Assembly: GCF_003991155.1 (NCBI RefSeq)
Contig: NZ_CP031293.1
Length of the DNA stretch: 64,000 nucleotides
Source of the DNA: Escherichia coli
GTDB lineage: Bacteria > Pseudomonadota > Gammaproteobacteria > Enterobacterales > Enterobacteriaceae
Strand: one strand, 5' to 3'
A program made the translations under genes and the position numbers. This document shows, piece after piece, positions 42,426 through 63,499 of the stretch (position 1 is its first letter; each line of letters opens with the position of its first letter). Under the pieces are notes generated by a model, which saw only the letters and a program-made list of their open reading frames with translations, was not told the origin of the DNA and searched no databases.

Positions 42426-42719
42426 ATGAAAAAAATGTTGTTTTCTGCCGCTCTGGCAATGCTTATTACAGGATGTGCTCAACAGACGTTTACTGTTGGA
42501 AACAAACCGACAGCAGTAACACCAAAGGAAACCATCACCCATCACTTCTTCGTTTCGGGAATTGGACAGGAGAAAACTGTTGATGCAGCCAAAATTTGTG
42601 GCGGCGCAGAAAATGTTGTTAAAACAGAAACCCAGCAAACATTCGTAAATGGATTGCTCGGTTTTATTACTTTAGGCATTTATACTCCGCTGGAAGCGCG
42701 TGTGTATTGCTCACAATAA
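42426..42719 (+). CDS. bor: Bor lipoprotein (Iss-family serum-resistance protein)
   Basis: Start MKKMLFSAALAMLITGCAQQTFTV... with lipobox; convergent with Rz as in lambda. Confidence 0.9.
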   Translation: MKKMLFSAALAMLITGCAQQTFTVGNKPTAVTPKETITHHFFVSGIGQEKTVDAAKICGGAENVVKTETQQTFVNGLLGFITLGIYTPLEARVYCSQ

Positions 42720-43688: not shown

Positions 43689-44015
43689 TTACTCCTTAGA
43701 GCCACCAAACTTGTTACCGATTACTCTCATTGCAGCCCCACGAATAGCATCAACACCGATCAGCCCCACCCCACCACCAATGGCAACAGATAGTGATTTA
43801 GGCCATCCGACATACTCAAGAGCGGATGCAAAAGTCAGCGTCAGAGCGCCACAGAGTAGAATTTCGAGTGTTTTTCGCTTCCAGCCGCCACCACCGCCAA
43901 AATAGGCAATACGTAAACCAGCCATAACAATCGACATAATCACTGCGCCCAGCGGTGTGTCTCCACGCCACCAGCTCTGGACCAACTCCAGCCATGTATT
44001 TGGGTTATGAGGCAT
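43689..44015 (-). CDS. Putative holin, not lambda S type
   Basis: 108-aa ORF with about three hydrophobic segments, immediately upstream of R. Confidence 0.6.
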   Translation of the reverse strand: MPHNPNTWLELVQSWWRGDTPLGAVIMSIVMAGLRIAYFGGGGGWKRKTLEILLCGALTLTFASALEYVGWPKSLSVAIGGGVGLIGVDAIRGAAMRVIGNKFGGSKE

Positions 44016-44160
44016 TTGTAGTTATCTCTCACCTCGCTGATACAGCAGGTGCAAATTGAGGAAACATCATGTACCGCAAATCAGAAGCGGAAACGTCAAA
44101 GAAGCCGAGTCAATGGATAACTGCGGGATAGGCTAGGACCAAGGAATCCCCAGACCCAGA

Positions 44161-44189
44161 AACGACAAAACCCGCTCGATGGCGGGTTT
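44161..44189 (-). terminator. Candidate tR'-like terminator upstream of the lysis genes
   Basis: Hairpin AAACCCGC-TCGATG-GCGGGTTT; on the minus strand it is followed by a U-rich tract. Confidence 0.4.
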
Positions 44190-44306
44190 AAGCTGTGTGG
44201 CGAAGTGAGCACACTTAACAGATTACGATATTTTTTGCGTACGCGTTAGTGTTTTGATAGAATTTTCAGCCACATAAAAATTCATTCTTATAATTCGGGA
44301 TATATA

Positions 44307-45170
44307 ATGGATATAACTTGTTTAGAATGTGGCAATGTTCTTGACGACCCAACTGTAGCTTGCGATAAATGCGGTGCCACGCCTCATGTTGTAGTGCTGG
44401 GCAAACAATCGTACTTTCCTATTGGTGCTGTAACAGCAAATCTTGAAAAAAATGATTCAAGAGCATTTGATTATCGATTAGGTGAAGTTTGGGATCTAAA
44501 AAATGAAGTCACATCTGAATTCATAACCAGAATTGAGAAAAAATTTAGCCGAAAAAACAAATTTCATAACTTCCTAGACTCAGATCACAACCCTTCATCC
44601 ATTCCTACGATCCTAAAAAAATACATTAATAAGAATAATGAATTCATTGATTTATCTAGAGCTATAATAGAGAAGCTTAAACATAATGCTAATAACGAAT
44701 CGAGAGTTGCCCAACTTCAGGGGGGGAGCGTTGTTTTCATCCACTATAAGTCTACCGAACCAGAGGATTTGGGGAAACTTCTAATCGTAATGGTTGATAA
44801 ACAAAGCGCCTATGACTTTGATTCGGATAAGTTGACCCCAACAAGATTAAATCCAATTAATACCGATGCCTTACGGCAGGCTGCGATGTTCGATTTAACT
44901 TTATTCGAAGCCAGTTATCCAGAAAACAAGGGTGACTCATATGTACATTTCTTGCAAGGTAAATCTAAAAGCGATTTTTTCAAAGACTCATTAGGTTGCC
45001 GACATGATTCGGACAATAAAAGAAGCATTCAGCAATTATTCAGTGCTATAGATATTTTTGCTAGTAAAAACTCACTCGGTCGTGTACTGCGTGATACTAT
45101 TGACAATGAAGTTAAATCCTTACTGGAAAAAAATCAAAAGATAAACACGGAAATAAGTCCGTTAAGATAG
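44307..45170 (+). CDS. Zn-ribbon + NdpA/YejK-like nucleoid-associated-protein-family protein, truncated by frameshift at an A7 tract
   Basis: 287-aa ORF; N-terminal CLECGN-x10-CDKCG; FSRKNKFHNF, GGSVVFIHYK and YVHFLQGKSKSDFFKDSLG align by eye to YejK; AT-rich. Confidence 0.7.
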   Translation: MDITCLECGNVLDDPTVACDKCGATPHVVVLGKQSYFPIGAVTANLEKNDSRAFDYRLGEVWDLKNEVTSEFITRIEKKFSRKNKFHNFLDSDHNPSSIPTILKKYINKNNEFIDLSRAIIEKLKHNANNESRVAQLQGGSVVFIHYKSTEPEDLGKLLIVMVDKQSAYDFDSDKLTPTRLNPINTDALRQAAMFDLTLFEASYPENKGDSYVHFLQGKSKSDFFKDSLGCRHDSDNKRSIQQLFSAIDIFASKNSLGRVLRDTIDNEVKSLLEKNQKINTEISPLR

Positions 45171-45481
45171 AGGATATTTCAAAAATAATTGACTCATGCC
45201 TGACTGATTCACACAAATGTAAGGGAACGTTTGTCGATTTTGTTAATCTTAATGGTTTCCAGATTGACCCTCAATTTGAACCAACTCCTAAAGCAGCTGA
45301 AAGCGCGCTTACAATTGAAGTGGCAGATAACGACAATAATTTTAAGTTGAAAATAATGCGTGGAGCTATTGGAGACGAAAAGTCAAATAAGCCTGTAATT
45401 CTCACTGACAACAAATGCGAAATTGTGATAAAATTGAGTCAGGCAAATTATGATGAACTCAAAAGATATAGAGACAGCTAA
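45116..45481 (+). other. Open -1 frame continuing the upstream gene (YejK-like C-terminal region)
   Basis: Frame open from 45116 to TAA at 45479-45481, 2 nt before the next ATG; needs a -1 shift at AAAAAAA 45127-45133. Confidence 0.55.
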
Positions 45482-45483
45482 TA

Positions 45484-46698
45484 ATGACAATTGCTGATGA
45501 CTTATCAAGATTAGCGCAGATTATTAACGGAGCCTCAAGCAGAGTTGAGGGCTACTACACTGTCATAAGTCTTGAAGAAAGCATTGTTATTGTAAATAGT
45601 TCTGAAATAATTAGACTGTTACAATCTATAGGTTATAAAAAGGCAACAACCTGCATCGAAAATAATGAAATTTGGCTAGATCGCCAAGCTTCATCTTGGG
45701 ATGATGCTATAATTTATGAGAATGTTGAGTCTTTTTGGTCTAGAGTAAACACCCAAAACGCTCTTCCGAAAAATTATATCATCGGAACGCCGTTAATACT
45801 CCCTACTTCTAAGAATGAAAGCATCGAAAAAATCCATATTTTCTTTATGTGGAAAGATATCCTTTCATTAATTGCTGATCATCATAACAGTGACTGCTCT
45901 GTCTTATTTTTCACCAATGAAGACAAAAGTTATACAGTCGAACTCACGCATTTTTTACAATATAGCGAGATTAATCGCTTATCGAACTCGTCTCTTAAAT
46001 ATGAAATTATAAAGGAGCTTCTCGACACAATAAAAATCAATGATTTACACAAAAGCGAGCGCAAGCTCGTTATACGCTCAGCCATAAACGAAGTATTTAA
46101 AGCAAATGGTACGTTCAATTTCTTTGACTTGCTTAACTCTACTGAACTCGTCAGGAAAAAATATGATGAACTATATGAGATTTACACAAAGAGGTTTTCT
46201 GTAAATAAAATTCTTAACGAACTCGATGAGAAAAATCTTGAGTTCACGAGTAAAATTAACGAATTCATATCATCTAATCAGACAAAAGCATTGACTATTC
46301 CCGGTGCATTAATAGCAGCTGGTGGCTTAGTGAAGGCTAATGAAACAACCGAAGCAATATTGATTATCGCAGGACTTTGGATGATAAAAAAAGTCAATTA
46401 CATTTCTATTGAGATATTCAATGAAACATTCGACAACTTACGTTCTCGAGTGGAGTCCGCTTTCGATAAGTATTTAAAGTTTGAAGAAAATAAAGAAATC
46501 AAAGATAATGCAGATAGTATTAAGAGTAGCATTACAGGTTTGATTGATAAAGCTAAAAAAAGGATGAGAACTGTTAAATATCTCGCATCAGCCATGTTTT
46601 ATGGAGGCCTTATTTACGTTGGATATAAACAGTTCCCAGTCTTTTTTGAAAAATCGGCAGTAAATCTATTTTATTTTTTATGCCATACTATAAGCTAA
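45484..46698 (+). CDS. Hypothetical membrane-anchored protein, two C-terminal TM segments
   Basis: 404-aa AT-rich ORF; hydrophobic LTIPGALIAAGGLV...ILIIAGLWMI and YLASAMFYGGLIYVGY; no Walker or nuclease motifs seen. Confidence 0.7.
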   Translation: MTIADDLSRLAQIINGASSRVEGYYTVISLEESIVIVNSSEIIRLLQSIGYKKATTCIENNEIWLDRQASSWDDAIIYENVESFWSRVNTQNALPKNYIIGTPLILPTSKNESIEKIHIFFMWKDILSLIADHHNSDCSVLFFTNEDKSYTVELTHFLQYSEINRLSNSSLKYEIIKELLDTIKINDLHKSERKLVIRSAINEVFKANGTFNFFDLLNSTELVRKKYDELYEIYTKRFSVNKILNELDEKNLEFTSKINEFISSNQTKALTIPGALIAAGGLVKANETTEAILIIAGLWMIKKVNYISIEIFNETFDNLRSRVESAFDKYLKFEENKEIKDNADSIKSSITGLIDKAKKRMRTVKYLASAMFYGGLIYVGYKQFPVFFEKSAVNLFYFLCHTIS

Positions 46699-47034
46699 CA
46701 TTGCTAAACAGCCGTCAACAAACCCCATTGCAGTTTGCAGTTCCTTCCTAATTGTGCCATCAGAGCATTTTCTCTTCTTCGCAATAGTGCGTAATGAGAT
46801 ACCGATAACAAAGTGGGCGATGATGAGCTCATATTCCTCTGGTTTATACCTTCTCAACCGAGCCACACAACTGTCTATCATGATGCCTTCGTCATCATCA
46901 CACTGAATCCGTGACTTTTTGCCATGAGGTAAAAGTCCCTTGAAACCAGCCGCTATCGGCTGCCAGTCCACTCCGCTATTGTCTGAAGCAGCCCAAGCTC
47001 CCCAACGATCCATTACTTCATACATATCACGCAT
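46678..47034 (-). CDS. quuD: Late-gene antiterminator Q (DLP12 QuuD-like)
   Basis: Start MRDMYEVMDRWGAWAASDNSGVDWQPIAAGFKGLLP...; 3' end overlaps the convergent 45484-46698 gene. Confidence 0.8.
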   Translation of the reverse strand: MRDMYEVMDRWGAWAASDNSGVDWQPIAAGFKGLLPHGKKSRIQCDDDEGIMIDSCVARLRRYKPEEYELIIAHFVIGISLRTIAKKRKCSDGTIRKELQTAMGFVDGCLAMLAYSMA

Positions 47035-48719: not shown

Positions 48720-49664
48720 TTATGGTTTATTTTCTAGCTCTGATTTTTTGAAAGCTTCTATCAGACGATTAGCATCTTCTGTACCACCAGGAAGCACGTT
48801 TGATTTTTTAAGAATATACGGTGGGAACTTTGTGGTTAAATATTCATGCTTAAACCATCTACGAAACTCTGACAATGCAGAATCAGGATAGGCATTAATG
48901 ATCTGAGGATTGGAACTTGCCTGAAGAAAATCTTCAGGGTAATAATGCTCACAGTCTACTCTTTCTCCAAATTCTGTTGCTAACCCCTTTGCTTTCCAGT
49001 GACGCGCCCAGCAAGAACCAACACTGCCATCAGGTACGGTATGCTGATTAATCGCTAATCCAGCATTGATGAGATCTACCATCATACCTGCAATTTCATT
49101 AAATATAATGAAATACCCATCAGGTATGGTTCCCTTATCTTTTAATAAAGATACTCTGTCATGGTAATGCCTCCACGGGTCCTCCGGTTGATATTTTAGC
49201 GCCTCGTATATAAATGTCTTGAGGCCTTTTTTAGCAAGCTCTCTGTAAGATCTAATTGCAGTCTCACTTTCTGCTTGTTTTGCTTCAAAGGCATAGTATT
49301 CAAGTATAGCCATGCATACAACATCTGGATAAGCATGGTACTCAACACCATTTCGAATTATTGGTATATAAAGTTTTTCATCTGTAAAACCTTCATTAAG
49401 AAGATATGTACCAATAAAAGTCATTCTTCCTTTTTTGAAAATACCGTTCTCAACAGATTGAGCCCACTCATCGGTAATTTCCTTGATTCGCAAACGCTGA
49501 ACACCACAAACATTTGCCAACCCATTCTGAGTAAGGTACGGAATTCCGTTATCGAGTACCCCCATTTCTATACCGTTAATGACAGCCTCTTGCTTAACAT
49601 CTAAGTCTAAAGGTATGGATCTGAGGGAGGTAGTTCTCTGTTGTGCCATTTTTGATCCTATCAA
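48720..49664 (-). CDS. Hypothetical protein with possible Bro-N/KilA-N-like N-terminus (nin-region moron)
   Basis: 314-aa AT-rich ORF; N-terminal GVLDNGIPYLTQNGLANVCGV loosely resembles Bro-N; C-terminal region unassigned. Confidence 0.55.
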   Translation of the reverse strand: MIGSKMAQQRTTSLRSIPLDLDVKQEAVINGIEMGVLDNGIPYLTQNGLANVCGVQRLRIKEITDEWAQSVENGIFKKGRMTFIGTYLLNEGFTDEKLYIPIIRNGVEYHAYPDVVCMAILEYYAFEAKQAESETAIRSYRELAKKGLKTFIYEALKYQPEDPWRHYHDRVSLLKDKGTIPDGYFIIFNEIAGMMVDLINAGLAINQHTVPDGSVGSCWARHWKAKGLATEFGERVDCEHYYPEDFLQASSNPQIINAYPDSALSEFRRWFKHEYLTTKFPPYILKKSNVLPGGTEDANRLIEAFKKSELENKP

Positions 49665-50282: not shown

Positions 50283-51809
50283 TCAAAAATAAACCTCACC
50301 ATCAACCATATATTTGAGAGTACTTATCGCCTGCTGGGCGGATATTGTTTTCATTAAAGGATAGTGTTTAAAAACAATGCCATTCATAAAATAGATATCA
50401 CAGGTTTTATTATCTGTATTGATTATGATTTTTTCGAATGTTTTATAGGCAAGTGTACGACATAGCTCTCGCCCATTTTTACTGGTTAAGTCAATAGCAT
50501 GAAAATCACCAAGTGAGCTCACCGCTTTACTCTTCAAAGTTTTTAATGATACAGAAGCCCTTCGTAATTCCTTATCTAATACTCTGATTTTTTCTGCTAT
50601 AGCGGTAACTTCAGGCGCAACAGATAATGCAGCAATTAAATTATTAATTTTCATCTGGAGCTCAATAATTTTCAACTCTAAAGTTTCATTAGCATCTTTC
50701 TTGTTTTCAACTGGTTGGATTTTACTACAATTAAAAAGCAACTCATTAATGATATTATAATCAACCAAATCTCTCTTTATTGATGGCCTGTCACATCGAT
50801 GCAGTCTTCTCATCGGACAAACATAATAGCCATGCAAACTTCCAGATACCGCATGAACAATCATGGTATTACCACAAGCCTCGCACTTCATAACTGTTCG
50901 AAGTAGATTTATCAACATAGGATTTTTGCTACTATTGCTAATACCAAAAGGTGCCAACCGAATTTCCTGCACAGCGTAAAACAAATCATCTGATATGACT
51001 CTGGGATAATAGCCAGCGATTTCACTTATTCCTTTACCTCTTGCACGATATGAAGGTACGCATATACCTATCAGAGCTTTATTCGCTAATAATTTTTCAA
51101 TTACAGAAGGTCCCCATGCACTTTCTTTTCCTGAGAAATTCTTTACAGCATGATCATTTAAATACTTGGCTATTGCATTCAATGAGCGCCTTTCCATCCT
51201 GAGTTTAAAAATTAGCTCAATAGTTTTCACCCTGTCGGGGTCTGGAACAAAAGCCGTTCTTTTGTCATCTAAGGAGAGCCATCTCGGACAAGACGCCGTC
51301 ATAATCGTGCCTGACTCCAGTGCATCCTGCCGTTTTTTCTTCCATGATAATTTAACCCGACTTGACTTTATCTCGCTTTCTTCATTTGCCCTTTGTGCTA
51401 TAAGTATGGCTTTTATTAATGAATATGGATCATTCAAAGAGTCAATATTATAGACTGTATTATCGCAAAGAGTTATAACATCAATACCGTGATTCAAAAT
51501 CAATTTCAGACGCTCAATCGCTTCACCGACTTTTTCTCTTGAAAGTCTGTCCAGACTTTCAACTAACAATGTAGTTCCTGGCAATATATAACCATGCTCT
51601 ATAGCATCTAAAAATTCCGAAAAAGCTCCTGATTGTGCATGCTTTCCTTTGAATGCACTTAATCCTAAATCTTCATATGTTATGGTATCAAGATAATAAT
51701 CACTATTTACCTTTAACCATTCAGCAATAAGTCTTCTCTGTCGGTTTAATGAGTCGCCAGACATCTGACCTGGTGATGAAAATCGCATATATGCTATGGC
51801 TTTTTTCAT
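50283..51809 (-). CDS. ybcK: Large serine recombinase (YbcK-like)
   Basis: 508-aa AT-rich ORF MKKAIAYMRFSSPGQ... with resolvase catalytic domain, recombinase domain and Cys-rich zinc ribbon. Confidence 0.8.
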   Translation of the reverse strand: MKKAIAYMRFSSPGQMSGDSLNRQRRLIAEWLKVNSDYYLDTITYEDLGLSAFKGKHAQSGAFSEFLDAIEHGYILPGTTLLVESLDRLSREKVGEAIERLKLILNHGIDVITLCDNTVYNIDSLNDPYSLIKAILIAQRANEESEIKSSRVKLSWKKKRQDALESGTIMTASCPRWLSLDDKRTAFVPDPDRVKTIELIFKLRMERRSLNAIAKYLNDHAVKNFSGKESAWGPSVIEKLLANKALIGICVPSYRARGKGISEIAGYYPRVISDDLFYAVQEIRLAPFGISNSSKNPMLINLLRTVMKCEACGNTMIVHAVSGSLHGYYVCPMRRLHRCDRPSIKRDLVDYNIINELLFNCSKIQPVENKKDANETLELKIIELQMKINNLIAALSVAPEVTAIAEKIRVLDKELRRASVSLKTLKSKAVSSLGDFHAIDLTSKNGRELCRTLAYKTFEKIIINTDNKTCDIYFMNGIVFKHYPLMKTISAQQAISTLKYMVDGEVYF

Positions 51810-52065
51810 GGTGACACCTGCTAACGTATGCTTTTATAAACCTTAGTGGTGAGATATAATTTTTGTTTAATTTTTATTTAAAAAGACAATTAAGGTCACA
51901 TTATCTTGAATATACAACAATAATCGTATTGCAATTTTCTTACGCCATAATCTTGAAAGCACAAAAGAATACATAAAAAAATAAAGACATTAACAAAAAG
52001 CATAAAACGAGGCTCATATAAATATAAGAGCCTCCATATTTTAGTCGTTTAGAAACAAATTATTT

Positions 52066-52398
52066 TTAATGTGGTGTGCTTCGTGACAATAAATTAATAA
52101 CCAACACACCGGCACAAATCAACATCATGCCTATAATGGCTGGCAGGTCCAGCCGTTGGCCGAAAAATCCCCATGACAGTAAGCTAATCAGGACAATACC
52201 GACTCCTGACCAGATAGCATAAGCAATCCCTGTAGGAATATAAGCCAGCGTCTGAGCTAATAACCAGAATGATGCACAATAACAAATAATTGTACCAACA
52301 GATGGCCATAACCGTGTAAAACCTTCTGAAAACTTCATTAAGGTTGTACCAATGACCTCTGCAAGTATTGCACCACCAAGATAAATATAAGGGTTCAT
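52066..52398 (-). CDS. emrE: EmrE small multidrug resistance transporter
   Basis: Start MNPYIYLGGAILAEVIGTTLMKFSEGF...; four TM helices. Confidence 0.9.
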   Translation of the reverse strand: MNPYIYLGGAILAEVIGTTLMKFSEGFTRLWPSVGTIICYCASFWLLAQTLAYIPTGIAYAIWSGVGIVLISLLSWGFFGQRLDLPAIIGMMLICAGVLVINLLSRSTPH

Positions 52399-52465
52399 AG
52401 CATATTCTTTCCTGTTCAAACTGGAGAGAATTGTACTACAGTTTGAAATCAACTCACCTGTTTCA

Positions 52466-52768
52466 TCATTGTGTACCCATTGATGTTCTTTTATATACCC
52501 TCAATAAGCGTTTCATCGCGGCACTCTGGCGACACTCCTTAAAAATCAGATTCGTGCTCACCTTTCCTTCCCGTTCTTCTCTGGTAGCGAACCGGTAATA
52601 CACCGTTCGCCAGACCTTACCATCAACGACCAGGATTCCTGCCCGCGCCATTTTAGCCGCAGCCTGATTTATGCTGGTTACGGTTGCGCCTGTTACCGCG
52701 GCAACGTCCTGTGCACAGAAGCTCTTATGCGTCCCCAGGTAATGAATAATTGCCTCTTTGCCCGTCAT
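52466..52768 (-). CDS. ren: Ren protein
   Basis: 100-aa ORF MTGKEAIIHYLGTHKSFCAQDVAAVTGATVTSINQAAAKMARAG... Confidence 0.85.
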   Translation of the reverse strand: MTGKEAIIHYLGTHKSFCAQDVAAVTGATVTSINQAAAKMARAGILVVDGKVWRTVYYRFATREEREGKVSTNLIFKECRQSAAMKRLLRVYKRTSMGTQ

Positions 52769-53466
52769 ACACTTGCTCCTTTCAGTCCGAACTTAGCTTT
52801 AATTTCTGCGATCTTCGCCAGAGCCTGTGCACGATTTAGAGGTCTACCGCCCATAACAGGAAGTTGTTTTACTGGTTCAGGGATCGCCTCACCACGGTTA
52901 ATTCGCGCGGTCATACAAGTCAGTTCATCGGCAGCCTTGCGCCGTAATTCCGTATCAGTAAGCGCATTGGCCCGCATATTCTGGTACAGGCTAGTAACCA
53001 GCCAGTAGTGCGCGTTTGATTTCCACGGATAAGACTCTGCATCCGGATACAGGCCACGCTTCCGGCAATACTCGTAAACCATATCAACCAGCTCGCTGGC
53101 GTTTGGCAGTCCGGCAATAACGGATACTTCTTCACGGCACCATGCAACAAACTGCCCGGGTGATGGCAGGAATGGTCGATTCTGCCGACGGGCTACGCGC
53201 ATTCCTGCGTTAACCTGTTCCATTGTGGTGATCCCGTTTTCCCGGAAAGCCAGAACCCACTGGCGGCGGATTTCGTTCAGTTCGTTCTGGTCCCGGTTAG
53301 CCAGGCTCGCCGGGAAAGTTGCCAGTAACTGGCTGAACACACCATTGATGATCTGCGCTACCTGCTGTACCTGAGGCTTTTCGTCGTACTGTTCCGGCAT
53401 GTTGTTGGCGATCCGACGCATCTGCTCACGGTCAAAGTTAATCATCTGTGCGGCGATGTTTTTCAT
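52765..53466 (-). CDS. P: Replication protein P (helicase loader), lambda type
   Basis: 233-aa ORF MKNIAAQMINFDREQMRRIANNMPEQYDEKPQ... Confidence 0.9.
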   Translation of the reverse strand: MKNIAAQMINFDREQMRRIANNMPEQYDEKPQVQQVAQIINGVFSQLLATFPASLANRDQNELNEIRRQWVLAFRENGITTMEQVNAGMRVARRQNRPFLPSPGQFVAWCREEVSVIAGLPNASELVDMVYEYCRKRGLYPDAESYPWKSNAHYWLVTSLYQNMRANALTDTELRRKAADELTCMTARINRGEAIPEPVKQLPVMGGRPLNRAQALAKIAEIKAKFGLKGASV

Positions 53467-54392
53467 AAATCCACCCCGTAAATCCAGTCTGTGTTTGTCA
53501 GGTCGAGTTTTGGTTTGCTAGCTGTCACGCCTGCCTGTTGCTTGTTACGGTTGATTTCGAGTTGGGTCCACTTGTCGCGGAGTTTGGCCGGACTTAGCAC
53601 GTTACCGGACCAGAAGTTGTCCTGGCATGCCCAGCGGAACAGCACGCACATGTCGCGGTGGTTACGTCCGTCACGTTCACGCATCAGGCGGATATCGTTA
53701 GCCCACCCTGCAAAATTCGGTTTTCTGGCTGATGGCGCGATGGTCTTCACCATGTCAAACATCCACTCTGCGGCGGTCAGGTCTTCTGCTGTCCCCCACC
53801 TGCTGCCGCTCTGAATTGCAGCATCTGGTTTCTCCACAGGAAGGTCGTTTTCTGGCTGGTCAGAGGATTCGCCAGAATTCTCGGACGAAAAAGGTTTTAT
53901 ATTGTCTTTTGTTAGTTTGTCTTTTGTGTTTACCTGATTCGGGTAAACGTCTTTACCTGATTTGGGTAAACTTTTTTTACCTGATTCAGGTAAATTTACC
54001 TCTTTCAGGTAAACTTTATTTTTCTTACCTGATTCGGGTAATGTTGACCATTCACTGACCACATTATTAATGCCGATATTCCGCCCGCTCTGAATAAAAA
54101 TCCCACGCTTTACCAGAACACTTTTTGCAGCAGAACACTTGTGCGGCAATATCCCGGTTAACTCGGAAAGTTGCTCGTTGCTCACCCAATCCATTTTTTT
54201 ATTAAAGCCATATGTTTTGCGCATGACAGCCAGGAAGACCAGAAGCTGGTGCTGTGTTAATCCGGCCAGCATCACAGCTTCCAGCAACTCATTTGCAATG
54301 CGCGTATAACCATCATCGAGATCTGCCACGCGCCGCTCCTTTTGTGCCGCATCCGGCACTGGAAAATTGAATATCTCAGCAGTGTTTGCCAT
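53463..54392 (-). CDS. O: Replication initiator O-like, non-lambda specificity
   Basis: Start MANTAEIFNFPVPDAAQKERRVADLDDGY...; iteron array inside gene; C-terminus lambda-O-like. Confidence 0.8.
   Translation of the reverse strand: MANTAEIFNFPVPDAAQKERRVADLDDGYTRIANELLEAVMLAGLTQHQLLVFLAVMRKTYGFNKKMDWVSNEQLSELTGILPHKCSAAKSVLVKRGIFIQSGRNIGINNVVSEWSTLPESGKKNKVYLKEVNLPESGKKSLPKSGKDVYPNQVNTKDKLTKDNIKPFSSENSGESSDQPENDLPVEKPDAAIQSGSRWGTAEDLTAAEWMFDMVKTIAPSARKPNFAGWANDIRLMRERDGRNHRDMCVLFRWACQDNFWSGNVLSPAKLRDKWTQLEINRNKQQAGVTASKPKLDLTNTDWIYGVDL
53929..54044. repeat. Replication origin iterons inside O
   Basis: Four to five ~20-bp repeats TTACCTGATTCGGGTAAAC (variants TTTGGG, TCAGG) at roughly 24-bp spacing. 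Confidence 0.75.
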
Positions 54393-54478
54393 AATTCCTC
54401 CCGCAATGAGTGTGTTACGATTTGCACCTGAAAGTCGGTTCTGTTCCAGCAGACCGGCTTTCGCCATTTCTGAACCTG

Positions 54479-55018
54479 TCATATTGCCCCCAGCATGGTG
54501 GTGACCATCGCCATCAGTGGACCAGCCAGATCTGGGTCCACACGAAACATCGACACAATACCTTCACTAATTTCCTTCAGTTTCTGGTGGCGTGGTGCGT
54601 TGAGAATGACAGCCTGTTTTGCCTCACTGAGTTCCTTTTCCATTTCAGCCAACCTAGCCATAAAGCTATCCTGCTCAACCAGGTAACCGCGATATTCCAG
54701 CGGTAGTACCGCCAGAATTGCCGGGGTCAGTTCACGCACGTTATTTCGGTATTTTTCAGAATCGAATTTGTTATCGAGGAAGCGGAACAGCTTCTGGCGT
54801 GCACGGCTGACATCATCAGGGAAATCGATGGTGCCGCCGCCCAGCTCCCGATACTCATTCACAATGAGTGCGGCAACAACATCCTGATTATCTGCAGCCG
54901 ACCAGGCGCGAACGGCATCACGGATTTTTTCGTGGCCTGGCGCCTGTTTTGTTTGAGAACGATTTATCACCGCAGTCGGGGTAAATCCGCTAGTCTGTTG
55001 GTATGTAATTGGTTGCAT
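54479..55018 (-). CDS. YdaT-like protein in the cII position
   Basis: 179-aa ORF; EYRELGGGTIDFP and LTPAILAVLPLEYRGYL resemble Rac YdaT. Confidence 0.55.
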   Translation of the reverse strand: MQPITYQQTSGFTPTAVINRSQTKQAPGHEKIRDAVRAWSAADNQDVVAALIVNEYRELGGGTIDFPDDVSRARQKLFRFLDNKFDSEKYRNNVRELTPAILAVLPLEYRGYLVEQDSFMARLAEMEKELSEAKQAVILNAPRHQKLKEISEGIVSMFRVDPDLAGPLMAMVTTMLGAI

Positions 55019-55099
55019 AATTGATTCCTTTAGTTTGAATTGACTGTTAATCAGTCTGTTAAGTTGATTGCTTATTGTTAAAGAGCGTGAAATGGAAAT

Positions 55100-55330
55100 T
55101 TAAGCTGCGTTCTTTTCGGTGTGTGGAAACAACTTCGGAAGATCCGGGCGAATCTGGTATGCCTTCACAACTCCACCAGTAGCCGTAACAATGCTGCCGA
55201 CATGTTCAGGGGATACCTTTGCTTTGTTGTGAAGCCACTTATAGACGGCCTGCTGTGAAACTTCGCAGGCATCGCCCAGTTTCTTTTGTGAACCAACTAT
55301 ATTGATCGCTGTTTTGATTGCTGGGTTCAT
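55100..55330 (-). CDS. Cro-like HTH regulator (YdaS family)
   Basis: 76-aa ORF MNPAIKTAINIVGSQKKLGDACEVSQQAVYKWLHNK...; divergent from the repressor. Confidence 0.7.
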   Translation of the reverse strand: MNPAIKTAINIVGSQKKLGDACEVSQQAVYKWLHNKAKVSPEHVGSIVTATGGVVKAYQIRPDLPKLFPHTEKNAA

Positions 55331-55434
55331 AACAACCTCCGTGGTTAATCTGAACCAAGATTAAAACTATGGTTGTTTTTAGTCAACAACCATTTTCGTT
55401 TGATGGAATAAAACCTTGGTTGTACATTTGGTCT
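55331..55434. promoter_or_regulatory. OR-like operator/promoter region between cro and cI
   Basis: Inverted repeats TTAATCTGAACCAAGATTAA (55345-55364) and ATGGTTGTT-N7-AACAACCAT (55369-55393). Confidence 0.6.
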
Positions 55435-56124
55435 ATGAAAACAACACTCTCAGAAAGACTTAAAGAAGCCAGATCAGCGCGAGGCCTTACACAAAAGGCA
55501 CTTGGGGATTTGGTTGGGGTTAGCCAGGCTGCTATTCAGAAAATCGAAACAGGGAAAGCTAACCAAACAACTAAAATCGTGGAGATCGCGAACGCTTTGG
55601 GTGTGCGCGCAGAATGGTTATCTTCTGGCATTGGAAATATGTCAGACAGTACAGTGCAACCAATACAATCAACTCTCAGCCATTCCAAATACTTCAAGAT
55701 TGACGTTCTTGATATAGAAGTCAGTGCTGGGCCGGGAGTCATCAACCGTGAGTTTGTAGAAGTTCTACGCTCGGTTGAGTACTCGTTTGACGATGCTCGT
55801 CACATGTTCGATGGTAGGAAAGCGGAAAATATCCGCATCATTAACGTGCGTGGTGACAGCATGTCAGGAACGATCGAACCAGGTGATCTGCTGTTCGTTG
55901 ATATCACTGTTAAATCTTTCGACGGTGATGGTATCTATGCGTTTCTGTACGACGACACAGCCCATGTAAAGCGCCTGCAAATGATGAAGGATAAGCTGCT
56001 GGTCATCTCTGATAACAAAAGCTACTCACCGTGGGACCCGATCGAGAAAGACGAGATGAACCGGGTGTTCATCTTCGGTAAGGTTATTGGGAGCATGCCG
56101 CAGACGTACAGGAAACACGGATAA
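55435..56124 (+). CDS. cI: CI-like repressor with S24 LexA-type autopeptidase domain
   Basis: Start MKTTLSERLKEARSARGLTQKALGDLVGVSQAAIQKIE (HTH); C-terminal GDSM and KRL catalytic motifs. Confidence 0.85.
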   Translation: MKTTLSERLKEARSARGLTQKALGDLVGVSQAAIQKIETGKANQTTKIVEIANALGVRAEWLSSGIGNMSDSTVQPIQSTLSHSKYFKIDVLDIEVSAGPGVINREFVEVLRSVEYSFDDARHMFDGRKAENIRIINVRGDSMSGTIEPGDLLFVDITVKSFDGDGIYAFLYDDTAHVKRLQMMKDKLLVISDNKSYSPWDPIEKDEMNRVFIFGKVIGSMPQTYRKHG

Positions 56125-56204
56125 TCAGCTGCGTGCTGATGAGGCTTTAGGGTAATGCGCTGAAAGAATTCTTTATAAAAATAACATTACGGGAAAGGCA
56201 AAAA

Positions 56205-56474
56205 ATGAGTGATAAAAAACTTATTAAAAAATCAAATAACTGTGTAGATGCATATGCTGATGCATTTGGATATTCATCTTTTGGGGAAGATGACGATCGC
56301 TTAGGCTCCATATCTTTCTTTCAGCATGTTACAGAATGGGACGCTGATGGTAGTAATGACACTGAAAGCGTAAAGTACAACATTGCAACAATTCGCATGA
56401 CGGAAGATTTAATGCTTAAACTCGCTGACTTTATTCGCGATCAGCATGATAGAGCTAAAACCAATAAGTCATAA
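56205..56474 (+). CDS. Hypothetical acidic protein, first gene in the rexAB position
   Basis: 89-aa AT-rich ORF MSDKKLIKKSNNCVDAYADAFGYSSFGEDDD... Confidence 0.5.
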   Translation: MSDKKLIKKSNNCVDAYADAFGYSSFGEDDDRLGSISFFQHVTEWDADGSNDTESVKYNIATIRMTEDLMLKLADFIRDQHDRAKTNKS

Positions 56475-56482
56475 TATTAACA

Positions 56483-56923
56483 ATGAAATACGGTTATTAC
56501 GAAGCTCCAAACCTAACTGAAAAGCTTGAACAAGCGGCAAGATCATCATCTTTGCACACCGCAGCATTTTCTCAATCAGCTGGTATGTCTGGCGATAATG
56601 TACCTATGCTACAATCAAGTGGTAGCGGTGGCTCTGGGAGTAATAATGTGCTTGAATCAAAAGTTGCAAAGCTTGAGTCTGATGTGTCCTACATCCGACG
56701 TGACGTTGATGAGCTTAAGACAGATGTCAAATCTATCGACAGAAACATGATCGCTGTTCTGGAGCGACTCGATTCAATAAAAGAGTCACTAGCCAAAAAA
56801 CCATCCATCGATGCTATCGATAAAAAGATTTCAGACGCAAAGCTTGCGGTATTGCTTGGTGTTCCAGCAATCATCGCTGCAGGAACAGGGCTTTATAAGC
56901 TATCAATGTACTTTTTTCTTTAG
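56483..56923 (+). CDS. Hypothetical coiled-coil protein with C-terminal TM anchor, second gene in the rexAB position
   Basis: 146 aa; heptad-like VLESKVAKLESDVSYIRRDVDELKTDVKSIDRNM; hydrophobic tail LAVLLGVPAIIAAGTGLYKLSMYFFL. Confidence 0.55.
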   Translation: MKYGYYEAPNLTEKLEQAARSSSLHTAAFSQSAGMSGDNVPMLQSSGSGGSGSNNVLESKVAKLESDVSYIRRDVDELKTDVKSIDRNMIAVLERLDSIKESLAKKPSIDAIDKKISDAKLAVLLGVPAIIAAGTGLYKLSMYFFL

Positions 56924-57002
56924 TGCTTAAGAAACTGCTCGCCACCTCGCATTAGGCAAAGCGATTTTTCATTCCCTATTACCCTTTCTTAACCAATCAT
57001 CT

Positions 57003-57031
57003 AAACCCGGCCCCGTGCCGGGTTTTCTTTT
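57003..57031 (+). terminator. Rho-independent terminator ending the cI operon
   Basis: AAACCCGGC-CCCGT-GCCGGGTTT hairpin followed by TTCTTTTG. Confidence 0.75.
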
Positions 57032-57158
57032 GCCCTCCCCTCATCACACACACCGTTAAAAAAACCACCATAACCTCGCTTCAGTTATCGCTATGCGATT
57101 CAAGTCACAAAATAAATCCATCCTAAATACAACCAGTTATATCTAAAACAACCAATAA

Positions 57159-57202
57159 AACAACTTTTGTTGTTGACGATAAAACAACTATAGTTTTAAA
57201 TA
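57159..57202 (+). promoter_or_regulatory. Candidate OL/pL: operator palindrome plus promoter elements
   Basis: AACAAC-TTTT-GTTGTT palindrome overlapping a TTGACG -35; TAAATA 18 bp downstream; half-sites shared with OR. Confidence 0.4.
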
Positions 57203-57274
57203 AGTTCATCGCAACAACACAACGATACGGCAACCACCTGATTCACCGTTGCGATGACCGCTTAGATCCGCAGC

Positions 57275-57685
57275 TTGAATTTCAGCAGGCTCCGGGGAGT
57301 GCGAGGGGTGAAGCGGACGCGTGAACGTCGGTGTGACCAGCTGAAATCAACTCAACACTTCATACCTCAGTCGCTTCAACGAGGCGGCTTAGTTATGACA
57401 ACCGGCGGCCATCCACCGCCTGAATACGCGCAGAAGTCTCTATATGTTCAGCAGCCCAGCTTACGGGCAGGAGTTTTTATGGTTCATCAACATTACGGTA
57501 CGCAGACCGTTAATCGCGGTGCGGTCATGCCAGGAATGCTGGTCAAACACAAAGATGGTACCTGGACTGCATCGGCTAATTTACGCGGACGGCTTTATCT
57601 GCATCGCGGCGTCGAGCGCACTTATACCCGTGACTTGCTCGTGGAAATTTTTCTCGACGGACGCGGCAACGGCCTGAATCACTAA
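57275..57685 (+). CDS. Hypothetical early-left protein with Arg-rich motif, possible N-like antiterminator
   Basis: ORF with non-ATG start; N-terminal [12 protein letters not shown] resembles the lambda N Arg-rich motif; rest of protein unlike N. Confidence 0.35.
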
Positions 57686-57760
57686 TCCCCTTTCCTGTTT
57701 TCCTAATCAGCCTGGCATTTCGCGGGCGATATTTTCACAGCCATTTTCAGGAGTTCAGCC

Positions 57761-58057
57761 ATGAACGCTTATTACATTCAGGATCGTCTTGAGGCTCAGA
57801 GCTGGGCACGTCACTACCAGCAGATCGCCCGTGAAGAGAAAGAGGCAGAACTGGCAGACGACATGGAAAAAGGCCTGCCCCAGCACCTGTTTGAATCGCT
57901 ATGCATCGATCATTTGCAACGCCACGGGGCCAGCAAAAAAGCCATTACCCGTGCGTTTGATGACGATGTTGAGTTTCAGGAGCGCATGGCAGAACACATC
58001 CGGTACATGGTTGAAACCATTGCTCACCACCAGGTTGATATTGATTCAGAGGTATAA
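57761..58057 (+). CDS. gam: Gam, host RecBCD inhibitor (short form)
   Basis: 98-aa [41 protein letters not shown]... Confidence 0.9.
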
Positions 58058-58062
58058 AACGG

Positions 58063-58848
58063 ATGAGTACAGCACTCGCAACGCTGGCTGGGAAGCTGGC
58101 TGAACGTGTCGGCATGGATTCAGTCGACCCACAGGAACTGATCACCACTCTTCGCCAGACGGCATTTAAAGGTGATGCCAGCGATGCGCAGTTCATCGCA
58201 TTGTTGATCGTCGCCAACCAGTACGGCCTTAATCCGTGGACGAAAGAAATTTACGCCTTCCCTGATAAGCAGAACGGCATCGTTCCGGTGGTGGGCGTTG
58301 ATGGCTGGTCCCGCATCATCAATGAAAACCAGCAGTTTGATGGCATGGACTTTGAGCAGGACAACGAATCCTGTACATGCCGAATTTACCGCAAGGACCG
58401 TAATCATCCGATCTGCGTTACCGAGTGGATGGATGAATGCCGCCGCGAACCATTCAAAACCCGCGAAGGCAGAGAAATCACGGGGCCGTGGCAGTCGCAT
58501 CCCAAACGGATGTTACGGCATAAAGCCATGATTCAGTGTGCCCGTCTGGCCTTCGGATTTGCTGGTATCTATGACAAGGATGAAGCCGAGCGCATTGTCG
58601 AAAATACCGCATACACTGCAGAACATCAGCCGGAACGCGACATCACTCCGGTTAACGATGAAACCATGCAGGAGATTAACACTCTGCTGATCGCCCTGGA
58701 TAAAACATGGGATGACGACTTATTGCCGCTCTGTTCCCAGATATTTCGCCGCGACATTCGCGCATCGTCAGAACTGACACAGGCCGAAGCAGTGAAAGCT
58801 CTTGGATTCCTGAAACAGAAAGCCACTGAGCAGAAGGTGGCAGCATGA
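58063..58848 (+). CDS. bet: Bet single-strand annealing recombinase
   Basis: 261-aa [35 protein letters not shown]... Confidence 0.95.
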
Positions 58849-59525
58849 CACCGGACATTATCCTGCAGCGTACCGGGATCGACGTGAGAGCTGTCGAACA
58901 GGGGGATGATGCATGGCACAAATTACGGCTCGGCGTCATCACCGCTTCAGAAGTTCACAACGTGATAGCAAAGCCCCGCTCAGGAAAGAAGTGGCCTGAC
59001 ATGAAAATGTCCTACTTCCACACCCTGCTGGCTGAGGTTTGCACCGGTGTGGCTCCGGAAGTTAATGCTAAGGCGCTGGCATGGGGAAAACAGTACGAGA
59101 ACGACGCCAGAACTCTGTTTGAATTCACTTCCGGCGTGAATGTTACTGAATCCCCGATCATCTATCGCGACGAAAGTATGCGCACCGCCTGCTCTCCCGA
59201 TGGTTTATGCAGTGACGGCAATGGCCTTGAGCTGAAATGCCCGTTTACCTCCCGGGATTTCATGAAGTTCCGGCTCGGTGGTTTCGAGGCCATAAAATCG
59301 GCTTACATGGCCCAGGTGCAGTACAGCATGTGGGTGACGCGAAAAGATGCCTGGTACTTTTCCAACTATGACCCGCGTATGAAGCGTGAAGGCCTGCATT
59401 ATGTCGTGGTTGAGCGGGATGAAAAGTACATGGCGAGTTTTGACGAGATGGTGCCGGAGTTCATCGAAAAAATGGACGAGGCACTGGCTGAAATTGGTTT
59501 TGTATTTGGGGAGCAATGGCGATGA
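58845..59525 (+). CDS. exo: Exo 5'-3' exonuclease (lambda Red alpha)
   Basis: 226-aa [43 protein letters not shown]... Confidence 0.95.
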
Positions 59526-59676
59526 CGCATCCTCACGATAATATCCGGGTAGGCGCGATCACTTTCGTCTACTCCATTACAAAGCGAGGCTGGGTATTTC
59601 CCGGCCTTTCTGTTATCAGAAATCCACTGAAAGCACAGCGGCTGGCTGAGGAGATAAATAATAAACGGGGGGCTGT

Positions 59677-60234
59677 ATGACTGATTTCACCGGAAGCAAT
59701 ACTCCTGCCGAACATCGCGACAGCTGGCGCACACCACCAGAGATTTTTGCTGCGCTTAATGCAGAGTTCGTTTTTCAACTTGATGCTGCAGCCAGCGAAA
59801 AAAACCGACTATGTCGGCTTTTTATCTCACAGGAGCAGAACACATTAACCACTTCATGGCCTGAAGCAATGGGATATGCCTCTGGTTATGTCTGGTTGAA
59901 TCCACCATACAGCAATATTTCCCCTTTTGTGAAAAAGGCAGCCACTGAAAACAAATTCAGTAGTGTGGGATGTGTAATGTTATTGCCTGCTGACACATCT
60001 GTCGGATGGTTTCATGAAGCGATACAAACCGCCAGTGAGGTCAGATTCATCACGGCAGGACGACTGGCATTTATTAACCCACTCACCGGGAAACCCGTCA
60101 GTGGAAATAATAAAGGCTCGATGCTCATTATCTGGCACCCATACCCCCGTACACACTGCCACTTTACGACCGTTGATCGTGGAGAGTTGATGGCGTTCGG
60201 CTCAAGGATTCTTGCCCGTCGGGAGGCTGCATGA
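59677..60234 (+). CDS. Phage N6-adenine DNA methyltransferase (Dam-like)
   Basis: 185-aa ORF with catalytic NPPY motif (WLNPPYSN). Confidence 0.7.
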   Translation: MTDFTGSNTPAEHRDSWRTPPEIFAALNAEFVFQLDAAASEKNRLCRLFISQEQNTLTTSWPEAMGYASGYVWLNPPYSNISPFVKKAATENKFSSVGCVMLLPADTSVGWFHEAIQTASEVRFITAGRLAFINPLTGKPVSGNNKGSMLIIWHPYPRTHCHFTTVDRGELMAFGSRILARREAA

Positions 60235-60310
60235 CAACCACGGAATGCATTTTTCTGGCAGCGGGCTTCATATTCTGTGTGCTTATGCTTGCCGACATGG
60301 GACTTGTTCA

Positions 60311-60526
60311 ATGACACCTCAGCAGGAAAACGCCCTTCGCAGCATTGCCCGTCAGGCTAATTCTGAAATCAAAAAAGCCAGACAGCAGTTTCCGGATAAA
60401 AACGTCGATGACATTTGCCGTAGCGTACTGAAGAAGCACCGCGAAACGGTAACGCTGATGGGATTCACACCGACTCATTTAAGCCTGGCGATCGGCATGT
60501 TAAACGGCGTCTTTAAGGAGCGATGA
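60311..60526 (+). CDS. Hypothetical small phage protein
   Basis: 71 aa from internal Met MTPQQENALRSIARQANSEIKKARQ... Confidence 0.4.
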   Translation: MTPQQENALRSIARQANSEIKKARQQFPDKNVDDICRSVLKKHRETVTLMGFTPTHLSLAIGMLNGVFKER

Positions 60527-60624
60527 ACATGAAAAGCAAAATCATCAGGGAGCTACAGGCTCCTTTTTTATTGTTCGCATTCATCCTCAAGCGTATTAAC
60601 CAACAATTCAGGGATTAATGGAAG

Positions 60625-60843
60625 ATGGCAGACATCATTGATTCAGCATCAGAAATCGAAGAATTACAGCGCAATACAGCAATAAAAATGCGTCGTCTGA
60701 ACTACCAGACTGTATCCGCAACTCATTGTTGTGAGTGTGGCGATCCGATAGATGAGCGAAGACGCCTGGCTGTTCAGGGTTGTCGGACTTGTGCAAGTTG
60801 CCAGGAGGAGATCGAACTTAAGAACAAACAATGGGGACTGTGA
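60625..60843 (+). CDS. TraR/DksA-family C4 zinc-finger protein
   Basis: 72-aa ORF with CCECGDPIDERRR...CRTCASC. Confidence 0.7.
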   Translation: MADIIDSASEIEELQRNTAIKMRRLNYQTVSATHCCECGDPIDERRRLAVQGCRTCASCQEEIELKNKQWGL

Positions 60844-60890
60844 TGGCCTCAAAGCAGCAAATTTCAACATCGTCCAACTGAGGTGTAAAA

Positions 60891-61169
60891 ATGTTCAGAA
60901 TCATTTTTCCTAACACCTGGTACGTCGACCACCACGGCACTCCCTGCAAAATCCTGCGTTCTACCCACAACAAAGTTCACTACATCCGAAAAGGCAGAAC
61001 ATGTATCGCCAGCATGTTCCGCTTTAATCATGACTTTGAACCTGTGAATAAAGCTGATGCAGATCGGATAGCAGAAGAGATCGAAACGGCAGAACACATT
61101 AAGAAGTTACGTGACATGCGTTCAAAAAGCAGAGGTAACCATGGAATCATACAGCCTCACACTCGATGA
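60891..61169 (+). CDS. Hypothetical phage protein
   Basis: 92-aa ORF upstream of xis. Confidence 0.35.
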   Translation: MFRIIFPNTWYVDHHGTPCKILRSTHNKVHYIRKGRTCIASMFRFNHDFEPVNKADADRIAEEIETAEHIKKLRDMRSKSRGNHGIIQPHTR

Positions 61170-61512
61170 GGCCTGTCAGTTTCTTAAGATATCCAGACCA
61201 ACCGCCACCAACTGGATACGAACAGGCCGCCTACAGGCAACACGTAAAGATCCAACCAAGCCAAAATCTCCTTACCTCACAACACGGCAAGCCTGCATTG
61301 CGGCGCTTCAGTCTCCGCTGCATACTGTCCAGGTGAGCGCGGGTGATGGCATAACAGAGGAAAGAAAATGTCACTCTTCCGCAGAAATGAAATATGGTAT
61401 GCCTCGTATTCGCTCCCGGGCGGGAAACGAATTAAGGAATCTCTTGGCACAAAGGACAAGCGGCAAGCTCAGGAGTTGCACGACAAGCGAAAAGCAGAAC
61501 TCTGGCGAGTAG
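61141..61512 (+). CDS. xis: Excisionase / AlpA-like HTH protein
   Basis: [31 protein letters not shown]... immediately upstream of and overlapping int; exact 3' extent uncertain. Confidence 0.5.
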
Positions 61513-62531
61513 AAAAGCTAGGGGATTTACCTGATGTCACTTTTGAAGAGGCCTGCCTAAGATGGCTTGAGGAAAAAGCTGATAAAAAATCTCTCGATTC
61601 AGATAAAAGCCGGATTGAGTTCTGGCTTGAACATTTTGAGGGTATAAGGCTTAAAGATATCTCGGAGGCAAAGATTTACTCTGCTGTAAGCAGAATGCAT
61701 AACAGAAAGACGAAAGAAATATGGAAACAGAAAGTTCAGGCCGCCATCAGGAAAGGTAAAGAACTGCCTGTTTATGAACCAAAGCCAGTATCAACTCAGA
61801 CAAAGGCAAAGCATCTTGCCATGATAAAGGCCATTCTCCGTGCTGCAGAACGCGACTGGAAGTGGCTGGAAAAAGCGCCTGTCATCAAGATACCAGCGGT
61901 CAGAAACAAGCGAGTCAGATGGCTGGAAAAGGAGGAAGCAAAACGCCTTATTGATGAGTGCCCCGAACCACTGAAATCTGTCGTCAAGTTTGCGCTGGCA
62001 ACTGGTCTGAGAAAGTCGAACATCATAAATCTGGAATGGCAACAAATCGACATGCAGCGACGAGTTGCCTGGGTGAATCCAGAAGAGAGCAAATCAAACC
62101 GCGCCATTGGTGTGGCGCTGAACGATACCGCCTGTAAAGTGTTGCGTGATCAAATAGGCAAGCATCGCAAATGGGTGTTTGTACATACCAAGGCGGCTAA
62201 GCGAGCAGATGGAACATCAACGCCTGCGGTCAGGAAGATGCGCATCGACAGCAAGACATCATGGCTATCAGCTTGTCGTCGTGCAGGAATTGAAGATTTC
62301 CGTTTCCATGACCTCAGACACACCTGGGCAAGCTGGCTGATTCAGTCAGGCGTCCCATTATCAGTGCTTCAGGAAATGGGCGGATGGGAGTCCATAGAAA
62401 TGGTTCGTAGGTATGCTCACCTTGCGCCTAATCATTTGACAGAGCATGCGAGGAAAATAGACGACATTTTTGGTGATAATGTCCCAAATATGTCCCACTC
62501 TGGAATTATGGAGGATATAAAGAAGGCGTAA
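61368..62531 (+). CDS. intD: Tyrosine integrase (DLP12 IntD-like, argU-specific)
   Basis: 387-aa [36 protein letters not shown]...; C-terminal [10 protein letters not shown]...RYAH catalytic motifs; next to tRNA-Arg. Confidence 0.9.
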
Positions 62532-62546
62532 CTGATTGAATTGTAA

Positions 62547-62623
62547 TGGCGCGCCCTGCAGGATTCGAACCTGCGGCCCACGACTTAGAAGGTCGTTGCT
62601 CTATCCAACTGAGCTAAGGGCGC
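62547..62623 (-). tRNA. argU: tRNA-Arg (anticodon UCU), attL site
   Basis: Reverse complement GCGCCCTTAGCTCAGTTGGATAGAGCAACGACCTTCTAAGTCGTGGGCCGCAGGTTCGAATCCTGCAGGGCGCGCCA; 3' 45 nt duplicated at 13823. Confidence 0.9.
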
Positions 62624-63497: not shown

Positions 63498-63499
63498 TA

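Follow-up and report, generated by a model that had tools for sequence, protein, structure and literature searches.

The window analysed here, a 64,000-nt stretch of Escherichia coli DNA (contig NZ_CP031293.1), very probably holds an OFF allele of the prophage-borne DS-1 system, i.e. a real and heritable loss-of-function allele made by slippage. The cassette is the two-gene anti-phage system DS-1 with a frameshifted sensor gene rather than an intact copy, and its loss of function is probably recent. For the interrupted reading frame the initial annotation had offered four mechanisms, namely sequencing error, recent inactivating mutation, phase-variable switch and programmed slippage; among these, the inactivating mutation is the only one that found support.

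Reading frames at the A tract

Direct reading of the sequence gives GAAAAAAAT for positions 45126–45134, which includes a run of seven A's (A7, Table 1). The truncated DS-1A ORF encodes native residues 1–275 and then, before its TAG, 12 residues read out of frame (NQKINTEISPLR); it retains a zinc-ribbon-like CxxC...CxxC motif at the N-terminus and the greater part of the NA37/YejK domain. The −1 frame has a TAA at 45113–45115, is open from 45116 for 121 codons and ends with TAA, leaving a gap of 2 nt to the ATG of gene 2. The third frame contains 21 stops across this stretch, and since the DNA has ~34–35 % GC, such an open −1 frame is not a product of chance. Addition of one A to A7 yields a single ORF of 391 aa with zero differences to WP_000355468.1. 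The 287-aa product corresponds to WP_001588485.1, which is an ordinary CDS and not a pseudogene in the RefSeq annotation of E. coli LWY24.

These readings bear out the initial annotation, which had described one YejK/NdpA-like gene split by an A7 frameshift, an ORF terminating at 45170 next to a −1 frame open from 45116 to a TAA at 45479–45481, and a protein of ~390 aa upon insertion of one A. The repaired protein ends 2 nt before gene 2 and matches Pfam NA37 (YejK/NdpA domain) over residues 64–376 (E = 1.5e-23). The likewise proposed resemblance of the −1 frame to the C-terminal region of YejK agrees with the end of this match at residue 376 and with a profile match of the −1-frame product itself (see below).

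Table 1. Features of the DS-1 cassette and its immediate surroundings in the window
Feature	Position	Strand	Remarks
Holin gene	43689..44015	−	
Candidate sigma-70 promoter	44254..44281	+	TTGATA, 16-nt spacer, AAAAAT; weak consensus match only
Truncated DS-1A (pag2A-like) ORF	44307..45170	+	287 aa; ATG 44307, TAG 45168–45170
A7 homopolymer, site of 1-nt deletion	45127..45133	+	Functional allele A8, GAA AAA AAA TCA = E-K-K-S
DS-1A out-of-frame remainder (−1 frame)	45134..45481	+	Residues 277–391 of the intact protein; TAA 45479–45481
DS-1B (pag2B-like) effector gene	45484..46698	+	404 aa, intact, identical to WP_000150292.1
Q antiterminator gene	46678..47034	−	

Identity of the cassette

In related E. 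coli genomes, WP_000355468.1 is encoded by one 391-aa gene annotated as 'nucleoid-associated anti-phage protein', and WP_000150292.1 ('anti-phage protein') follows 2 nt after. The supplementary tables of the DefensePredictor study (Science 2026, PMC13092281) give both proteins together under the name DS-1 (working id D390), and the DS-1 construct gave −log10 EOP values of 7.6 for Bas1, 2.7 for Bas26, and 1.7 for T3 and Bas3 (Table S7). The allele assayed by these authors was the intact 391-aa DS-1A only (PMC13092281). The window shares with DS-1 the gene pair and the prophage cassette; gene 2 is identical and gene 1 becomes identical once an A is added. The validated construct differs in that its protein A has 391 aa, whereas gene 1 of the window is frameshifted to 287 aa.

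Profile searches place both genes in the curated families. The repaired protein scores 451 bits against the NCBIfam equivalog NF053868 (DS1_1_antiphage; cutoff 330) over positions 3–369, and gene 2 scores 375 bits against NF053869 (DS1_2_antiphage; cutoff 315). The actual 287-aa ORF reaches 349 bits against NF053868 (cutoff 330), aligned to positions 3–277 of 369 only. Neither protein was matched in PADLOC-DB 2023, a database older than the system.

The closest architectural counterpart is type II PANGU, which consists of the YejK-like NAP Pag2A and the membrane protein Pag2B with an N-terminal acidic DNA-mimic domain (bioRxiv 10.64898/2026.04.06.716658). In that study, defence against T4 depended on both PANGU genes. 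When the phage degraded the host genome, the NAP departed from the nucleoid and attached, with an affinity in the nanomolar range, to the effector's DNA-mimic domain, and the infection was aborted; in Pag1A, salt bridges to the effector are made by E278 and D282 (bioRxiv 10.64898/2026.04.06.716658). How Pag2A activates Pag2B was left open by the authors of that study (bioRxiv 10.64898/2026.04.06.716658). Compared by architecture, DS-1 is alike in being a two-gene E. coli operon in which a YejK-like NAP, the sensor DS-1A, precedes DS-1B, a putative membrane effector whose N-terminal part is acidic and which has a hydrophobic segment towards the C-terminus. Its first gene encodes a YejK-like NAP according to both the NA37 match and the fold match to PDB 9be2. 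Residues 1–265 of gene 2 are acidic (pI 5.2; 38 D+E vs. 29 K+R), and a single segment, at 291–309, exceeds 1.5 on the Kyte-Doolittle scale; judged from composition, this is consistent with membership in type II PANGU without proving it. The window differs from type II PANGU in its truncated sensor. By analogy, DS-1 most likely works as a type II PANGU, in which case the NAP would come off the degraded nucleoid, bind the DNA mimic of the effector and thereby abort the infection. The initial annotation's guess of a 'possibly toxic system' came close to this: the system is a validated anti-phage system, and it is the similar PANGU systems for which abortive infection has been reported.

E. coli YejK (NdpA; PDB 9be2) shares fold and domain with DS-1A (Foldseek E = 4.8e-14 over 362 columns; phmmer E = 1.2e-9) and is its sole significant fold match and sole solved relative. 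Identity to YejK is only ~18 %, however, and DS-1A scores 81 bits against a YejK equivalog cutoff of 341. Further differences from YejK are an additional zinc-ribbon-like CxxC...CxxC segment at the N-terminus of DS-1A, its mobile, prophage-borne nature and its pairing with an effector.

Genomic setting

Over its positions 1–50933 and 50929–64000, the window matches E. coli LWY24 (NZ_CP054556.1) with 100 % identity. In LWY24, a 1,331-bp IS3 interrupts a recombinase gene; this element is absent from the window, which therefore represents a separate sequence from a sister isolate of LWY24. The cassette resides in a lambdoid prophage bounded on one side by intD and a tRNA-Arg gene, while ompT, envY, nfrA and the cus operon adjoin the other. 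The two genes (44307–46698) have ~34 % GC as compared to ~50 % in their neighbours, are flanked by the holin and Q antiterminator genes and are transcribed in the direction opposite to the phage late genes, a typical moron position. When searched with megablast, 50,697 deposited phage genomes yielded no match to the cassette. A search of Rfam at gathering thresholds returned a tRNA at 62550–62623 as sole match, and none near the tract. Promoter-like sites around the cassette are no more frequent than in shuffled sequence; the candidate sigma-70 promoter (Table 1) is a weak lead and not a finding.

The lost C-terminal part of DS-1A

The 115 residues encoded by 45134–45478 alone match positions 270–369 of the 369 positions of NF053868 (DS1_1) with E = 1.4e-27. 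Among the 110 homologues retrieved at E ≤ 1e-10, the full-length ones comprise 380–396 aa down to 31 % identity and originate from Enterobacterales, Pseudomonas and others. An alignment of 33 homologues revealed F309 and F324 in the C-terminal part to be invariant, and K284, I291, N314, E325, T327, D341, G356, K362 and P363 to be near-invariant. In the AlphaFold2 model of DS-1A (mean pLDDT 86) the frameshift falls at the end of helix 258–277, and the lost part, with pLDDT values of ~84–95 per 10-residue block, comprises four helices and four strands. On the strength of this model and the alignment, the lost ~115 residues are a conserved domain that is predicted to be folded. Two observations named beforehand as speaking against a split gene, i.e. 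homologues ending together with the 287-aa ORF and a −1 frame devoid of conservation, were thus not made: full-length homologues reach 380–396 aa, and the −1 frame carries the DS1_1 match and the invariant residues of the 33 homologues.

Ancestral length of the tract

The comparison of tract length across homologous loci that the initial annotation had proposed identified A8 as the majority state, A7 and A9 as minority states, and no tract at all in the Klebsiella orthologue. A survey of complete genomes yielded 106 records with the cassette at ≥99 % identity, in 105 of 5,426 complete E. coli genomes. Three records carry A7 (LWY24, 2018-166 and STEC2018-553) and four A9 (CB6886, deposited twice, PK12 and 21AR0303). 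An exact match to the A8 68-mer was found in 87 records, and the remaining 12, on a haplotype with a flanking SNP, were taken as A8; hence, ~99 of the 106 cassettes (~93 %) have an in-frame A8 and one ORF. The Klebsiella orthologue (~91 % identity) reads GAACGAAAGTCA (CTG GAA CGA AAG TCA) and forms a single 391-aa ORF without A tract. Judged from these sequences, the in-frame A8 is the functional state, from which A7 is derived by loss of one A.

Recurrence of the A7 and A9 alleles

The A7 allele is real, heritable and recurrent. Exact matches in a wider protein collection retrieved the 287-aa (A7) product from 373 contigs (744 index blocks), the A9 product (279 aa, ending EKKIKR) from 97 contigs (246 blocks) and the intact product from at least 1,000 contigs (10,333 blocks), counts that include clonal redundancy and some error-prone long-read assemblies and hence give rough frequencies. 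On this basis ~9 % of the cassettes in the collection, about 1 in 11, are A7 or A9. Where the tract itself was read, in 33 related loci, all 287-aa loci have A7, all intact loci A8 and all 279-aa loci A9. Based on cassette haplotypes defined by 21 SNP sites, A7 occurs on at least four and A9 on at least six haplotypes, in at least three different prophage backbones, and three SNP haplotypes carry A7, A8 and A9 each. On the haplotype and in the prophage type of the window, A7 is also present in LWY24, GCA_000457065 and GCA_000459275. None of the 21 A7 or A9 loci from other assemblies has a second lesion, the repaired gene 1 encoding 391 aa and gene 2 404 aa in each; the window is likewise otherwise intact (391 and 404 aa). 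This lack of second lesions means that the frameshifts are young, or in principle reversible.

Slippage at the A8 run and phase variation

The A8 run was compared with other homopolymers of both genes by looking up the exact sequences of the predicted −1 and +1 products (contig counts, deletion/insertion). The A8 tract of gene 1 (373/97) stands above the 7-mers, i.e. A7 at nt 309 (16/0) and G7 at nt 414 (28/27) of gene 1 and A7 at nt 903 (53/0) and A7 at nt 1072 (8/0) of gene 2, and T6 at nt 669 of gene 1 was found shifted least (1/0). The frequency of shift alleles therefore climbs steeply with run length across A8, the four 7-mers and T6. Indel rates in E. coli are known to rise steeply with homopolymer length, and the observed trend implies that mutation pressure, i.e. 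plain replication slippage, alone explains the A8 variants. In some strains IS1 interrupts the cassette (230-aa fragment on 87 contigs), and another frameshift allele yields a 337-aa product (20 contigs). This cassette is being inactivated by many routes, with the A8 run as its most vulnerable spot, and a dedicated switch is not required.

That the run serves as a slow, reversible ON/OFF switch under selection, with lysogens holding an OFF state recoverable in one step, is unlikely. Such a switch would explain why all 21 loci are otherwise intact and why ~9 % of cassettes are OFF on many backgrounds. The fuller version, in which slippage between A7, A8 and A9 hedges lysogens between the cost of abortive infection and protection and the window is caught OFF, is decidedly unlikely. 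It would fit the presence of both longer and shorter tracts on several identical SNP haplotypes, the position of all 21 A7 and A9 loci one step from ON, the share of OFF cassettes in the collection, and the existence of homopolymer switches in other genes and other defence systems. Against it stand the same length trend in the 6- and 7-base runs of both genes, the absence of the tract from the Klebsiella orthologue and the irreversible loss of the cassette via IS1 insertion. Moreover, in E. coli with functional mismatch repair, slippage at an A8 run is expected to be orders of magnitude slower than at classical contingency tracts.

A homopolymer phase switch within a defence system is exemplified by the G-tract of pglX in the Pgl system of Streptomyces. 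The 7C tract of Mycobacterium tuberculosis glpK is another homopolymer frameshift switch (bioRxiv 10.1101/717272). DS-1A resembles both in having an intragenic mononucleotide run of which +1 and −1 variants inactivate the gene and recur on many backgrounds. It differs from them in that its tract is short for a repair-proficient host, unconserved in Klebsiella and similar in behaviour to the other runs of the cassette. As at contingency loci, +1 and −1 variants of the tract were found among close relatives (the three identical haplotypes); variation beyond the expectation from tract length, or conservation of the tract, was not. Neither the control homopolymers nor the Klebsiella orthologue gave a sign of elevated or reversible switching at the DS-1A tract. 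Of the phase-variable option raised in the initial annotation, the variation in both directions is thus retained, while the length-dependent trend shared with the other homopolymers of the cassette counts against a switch.

Sequencing error and programmed slippage

It is highly improbable that the A7 tract results from a sequencing or assembly error in a genome that truly has A8 and an intact gene. Homopolymer miscalls are the commonest error of long reads, some A7 or A9 assemblies (loci L009, L011 and L016) have other split genes nearby, and the closest match of the window, LWY24, is a single complete assembly. Nevertheless, the window and LWY24 are separate sequences, as the IS3 difference testifies, and both have A7; the independent assemblies GCA_000457065 and GCA_000459275 have it as well, on the same haplotype and in the same prophage type. 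Blocks whose longest contig exceeds 1 Mb account for 3.0 % of the intact, 3.2 % of the A7 and 2.4 % of the A9 blocks, so A7 is not commoner than the intact allele among them, and most A7 blocks hold only contigs of 2–20 kb, typical of short-read assemblies. Lack of enrichment among >1 Mb blocks and prevalence of short contigs also led to rejection of long-read homopolymer errors as the main cause of the recurrent A7 and A9 alleles. In the 50 kb of LWY24 annotation compared, no gene is disrupted by a simple frameshift alone: the four pseudogenes are all truncated remnants, one of them also frameshifted. Sequencing error, as considered in the initial annotation, is hence unlikely given the same allele, haplotype and prophage type in independent assemblies (L004, L012 and LWY24) and the 373 contigs.

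It is hardly credible that A_AAA_AAT supports programmed −1 ribosomal frameshifting, or transcriptional slippage, with the full-length protein as a regulated minor product. Frame 0 does read GA A AAA AAT, a formal X_XXY_YYZ heptamer with AAU rather than AAG as A-site codon, and the open −1 frame has its end exactly at that of the intact gene. However, A7 is derived and in the minority, and no shift is needed with the ancestral A8. The 80 nt that follow the tract fold at −8.8 kcal/mol, no better than shuffled sequence (z = −0.17), no Shine-Dalgarno-like element (GGAG, AGGA) lies upstream of the tract, and neither the site nor the two-frame layout is conserved, the 33 aligned homologues and other full-length matches being single proteins of ~380–396 aa. 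The efficient −1 motif of E. coli is A_AAA_AAG with stimulators, and RNA polymerase slips appreciably only from about nine consecutive A or T onwards. The A7 allele could give rise to a little full-length protein through low-level slippage in transcription or on the ribosome, a trace being the most that is expected. This part of the initial annotation found no support, considering the ~93 % in-frame A8 cassettes, the lack of a tract in the Klebsiella orthologue, the single ORFs of all homologues and the missing stimulatory structure.

Consequences and significance

Under the preferred reading, a slippage-made loss-of-function allele of DS-1A, replication slippage would have removed one A from the A8 run. 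Translation of the A7 allele leaves the native frame after residue 275, adds the 12 wrong residues and stops, so that the conserved C-terminal domain of ~115 residues is lost. As the most slippage-prone site of the cassette, the A8 run collects most of the knock-out alleles. The truncated sensor should, by analogy, be unable to sense or to activate, since PANGU needs both genes and residues 278 and 282 of Pag1A contact the effector. Only 2 nt separate the stop of gene 1 from the start of gene 2 in the intact allele (TAATAATG), and gene 2 is preceded by no more than a weak GAGA. With A7, translation ends 313 nt before DS-1B, as compared to 2 nt in the intact allele, and this earlier termination suggests a loss of translational coupling that probably lowers DS-1B expression.

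DS-1 is an already described and experimentally validated system with curated NCBIfam models, and a homopolymer frameshift is an ordinary lesion; no new mechanism is revealed, and the interest of the allele is mainly practical. The natural A7/A8 pairs on identical haplotypes represent ready-made isogenic controls for work on DS-1 and PANGU and allow a test of the need for the C-terminal domain of the NAP. With 349 bits against a cutoff of 330 and a normal CDS annotation, the truncated gene would lead defence censuses to count the strain as DS-1-positive. Given the ~9 % of cassettes with A7 or A9, in addition to breaks at other homopolymers and by IS1, presence/absence calls overstate the carriage of functional DS-1.

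Lesions in the DS-1 genes

Both genes of the two-gene anti-phage cassette DS-1, DS-1A and DS-1B, are decaying at homopolymers. Frameshifted alleles at seven-base runs of the cassette other than the A7 tract disrupted in the window were detected in public data on 8–55 contigs for each of the runs checked (three A7 and one G7), and in the related locus L033, a T6 to T7 change results in a DS-1B product of 388 aa. A lesion of a different kind was found in a human blood isolate (locus L003, NZ_OZ547033.1, 2084–2778), where an IS1 element located within DS-1A leaves fragments of 159 and 230 aa; in the protein collection, 87 contigs carry the 230-aa fragment.

Coordinates of features in the window
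Feature	Position	Strand	Details
Direct repeat, tail-fibre region	21014–21255 and 21203–21444		two overlapping copies, ~242 bp, 86 % identity
iss/bor	42426–42719	+	increased serum survival lipoprotein Iss
Strong terminator-like hairpin	44168–44189	− (late-gene strand)	AAACCCGCCATCGAGCGGGTTT, then T-rich tail
Further 7-base homopolymers, DS-1A	44446–44452, 44615–44621, 44720–44726		
Further 7-base homopolymers, DS-1B	46386–46392, 46555–46561		
BstA C-terminal domain-containing protein gene	48720–49664	−	314 aa in ORF list, 309 aa as annotated

Other genes and repeats of the prophage

A second prophage-borne abortive-infection gene is likely present 2 kb from DS-1, the product of which contains the Pfam domain BstA_C and is named accordingly in newer RefSeq records; an NCBIfam search with this product yielded no match. 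The iss/bor gene, which adjoins the lysis genes, represents another moron of the DS-1-carrying prophage; some related prophages lack it or have other sequence in its place (e.g., locus L004). Close to the direct repeat, several partial tail-fibre pseudogenes are annotated in LWY24 (E. coli NZ_CP054556.1), the closest match of the window.

LWY24 is otherwise identical to the window and differs solely by a 1,331-bp IS3-family element, which splits the prophage recombinase/zinc-ribbon gene at window position 50929–50933 and is flanked by a target duplication of these 5 bases. Since the element is absent from the window, the gene should be uninterrupted there. In related loci, the recombinase gene codes for 508 aa with resolvase, recombinase and zinc-ribbon domains.

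Flanks of the DS-1 cassette

Downstream, DS-1B and the Q antiterminator gene converge and share 21 nt at their 3′ ends (46678–46698). On the opposite side, the most variable stretch among the related loci extends from 44016 to 44231, and the hairpin is placed between the holin gene and the cassette. This hairpin resembles a tR'-type terminator; if it is of this type, the insertion site of the DS-1 cassette would have Q on one side and the late promoter/terminator region on the other.
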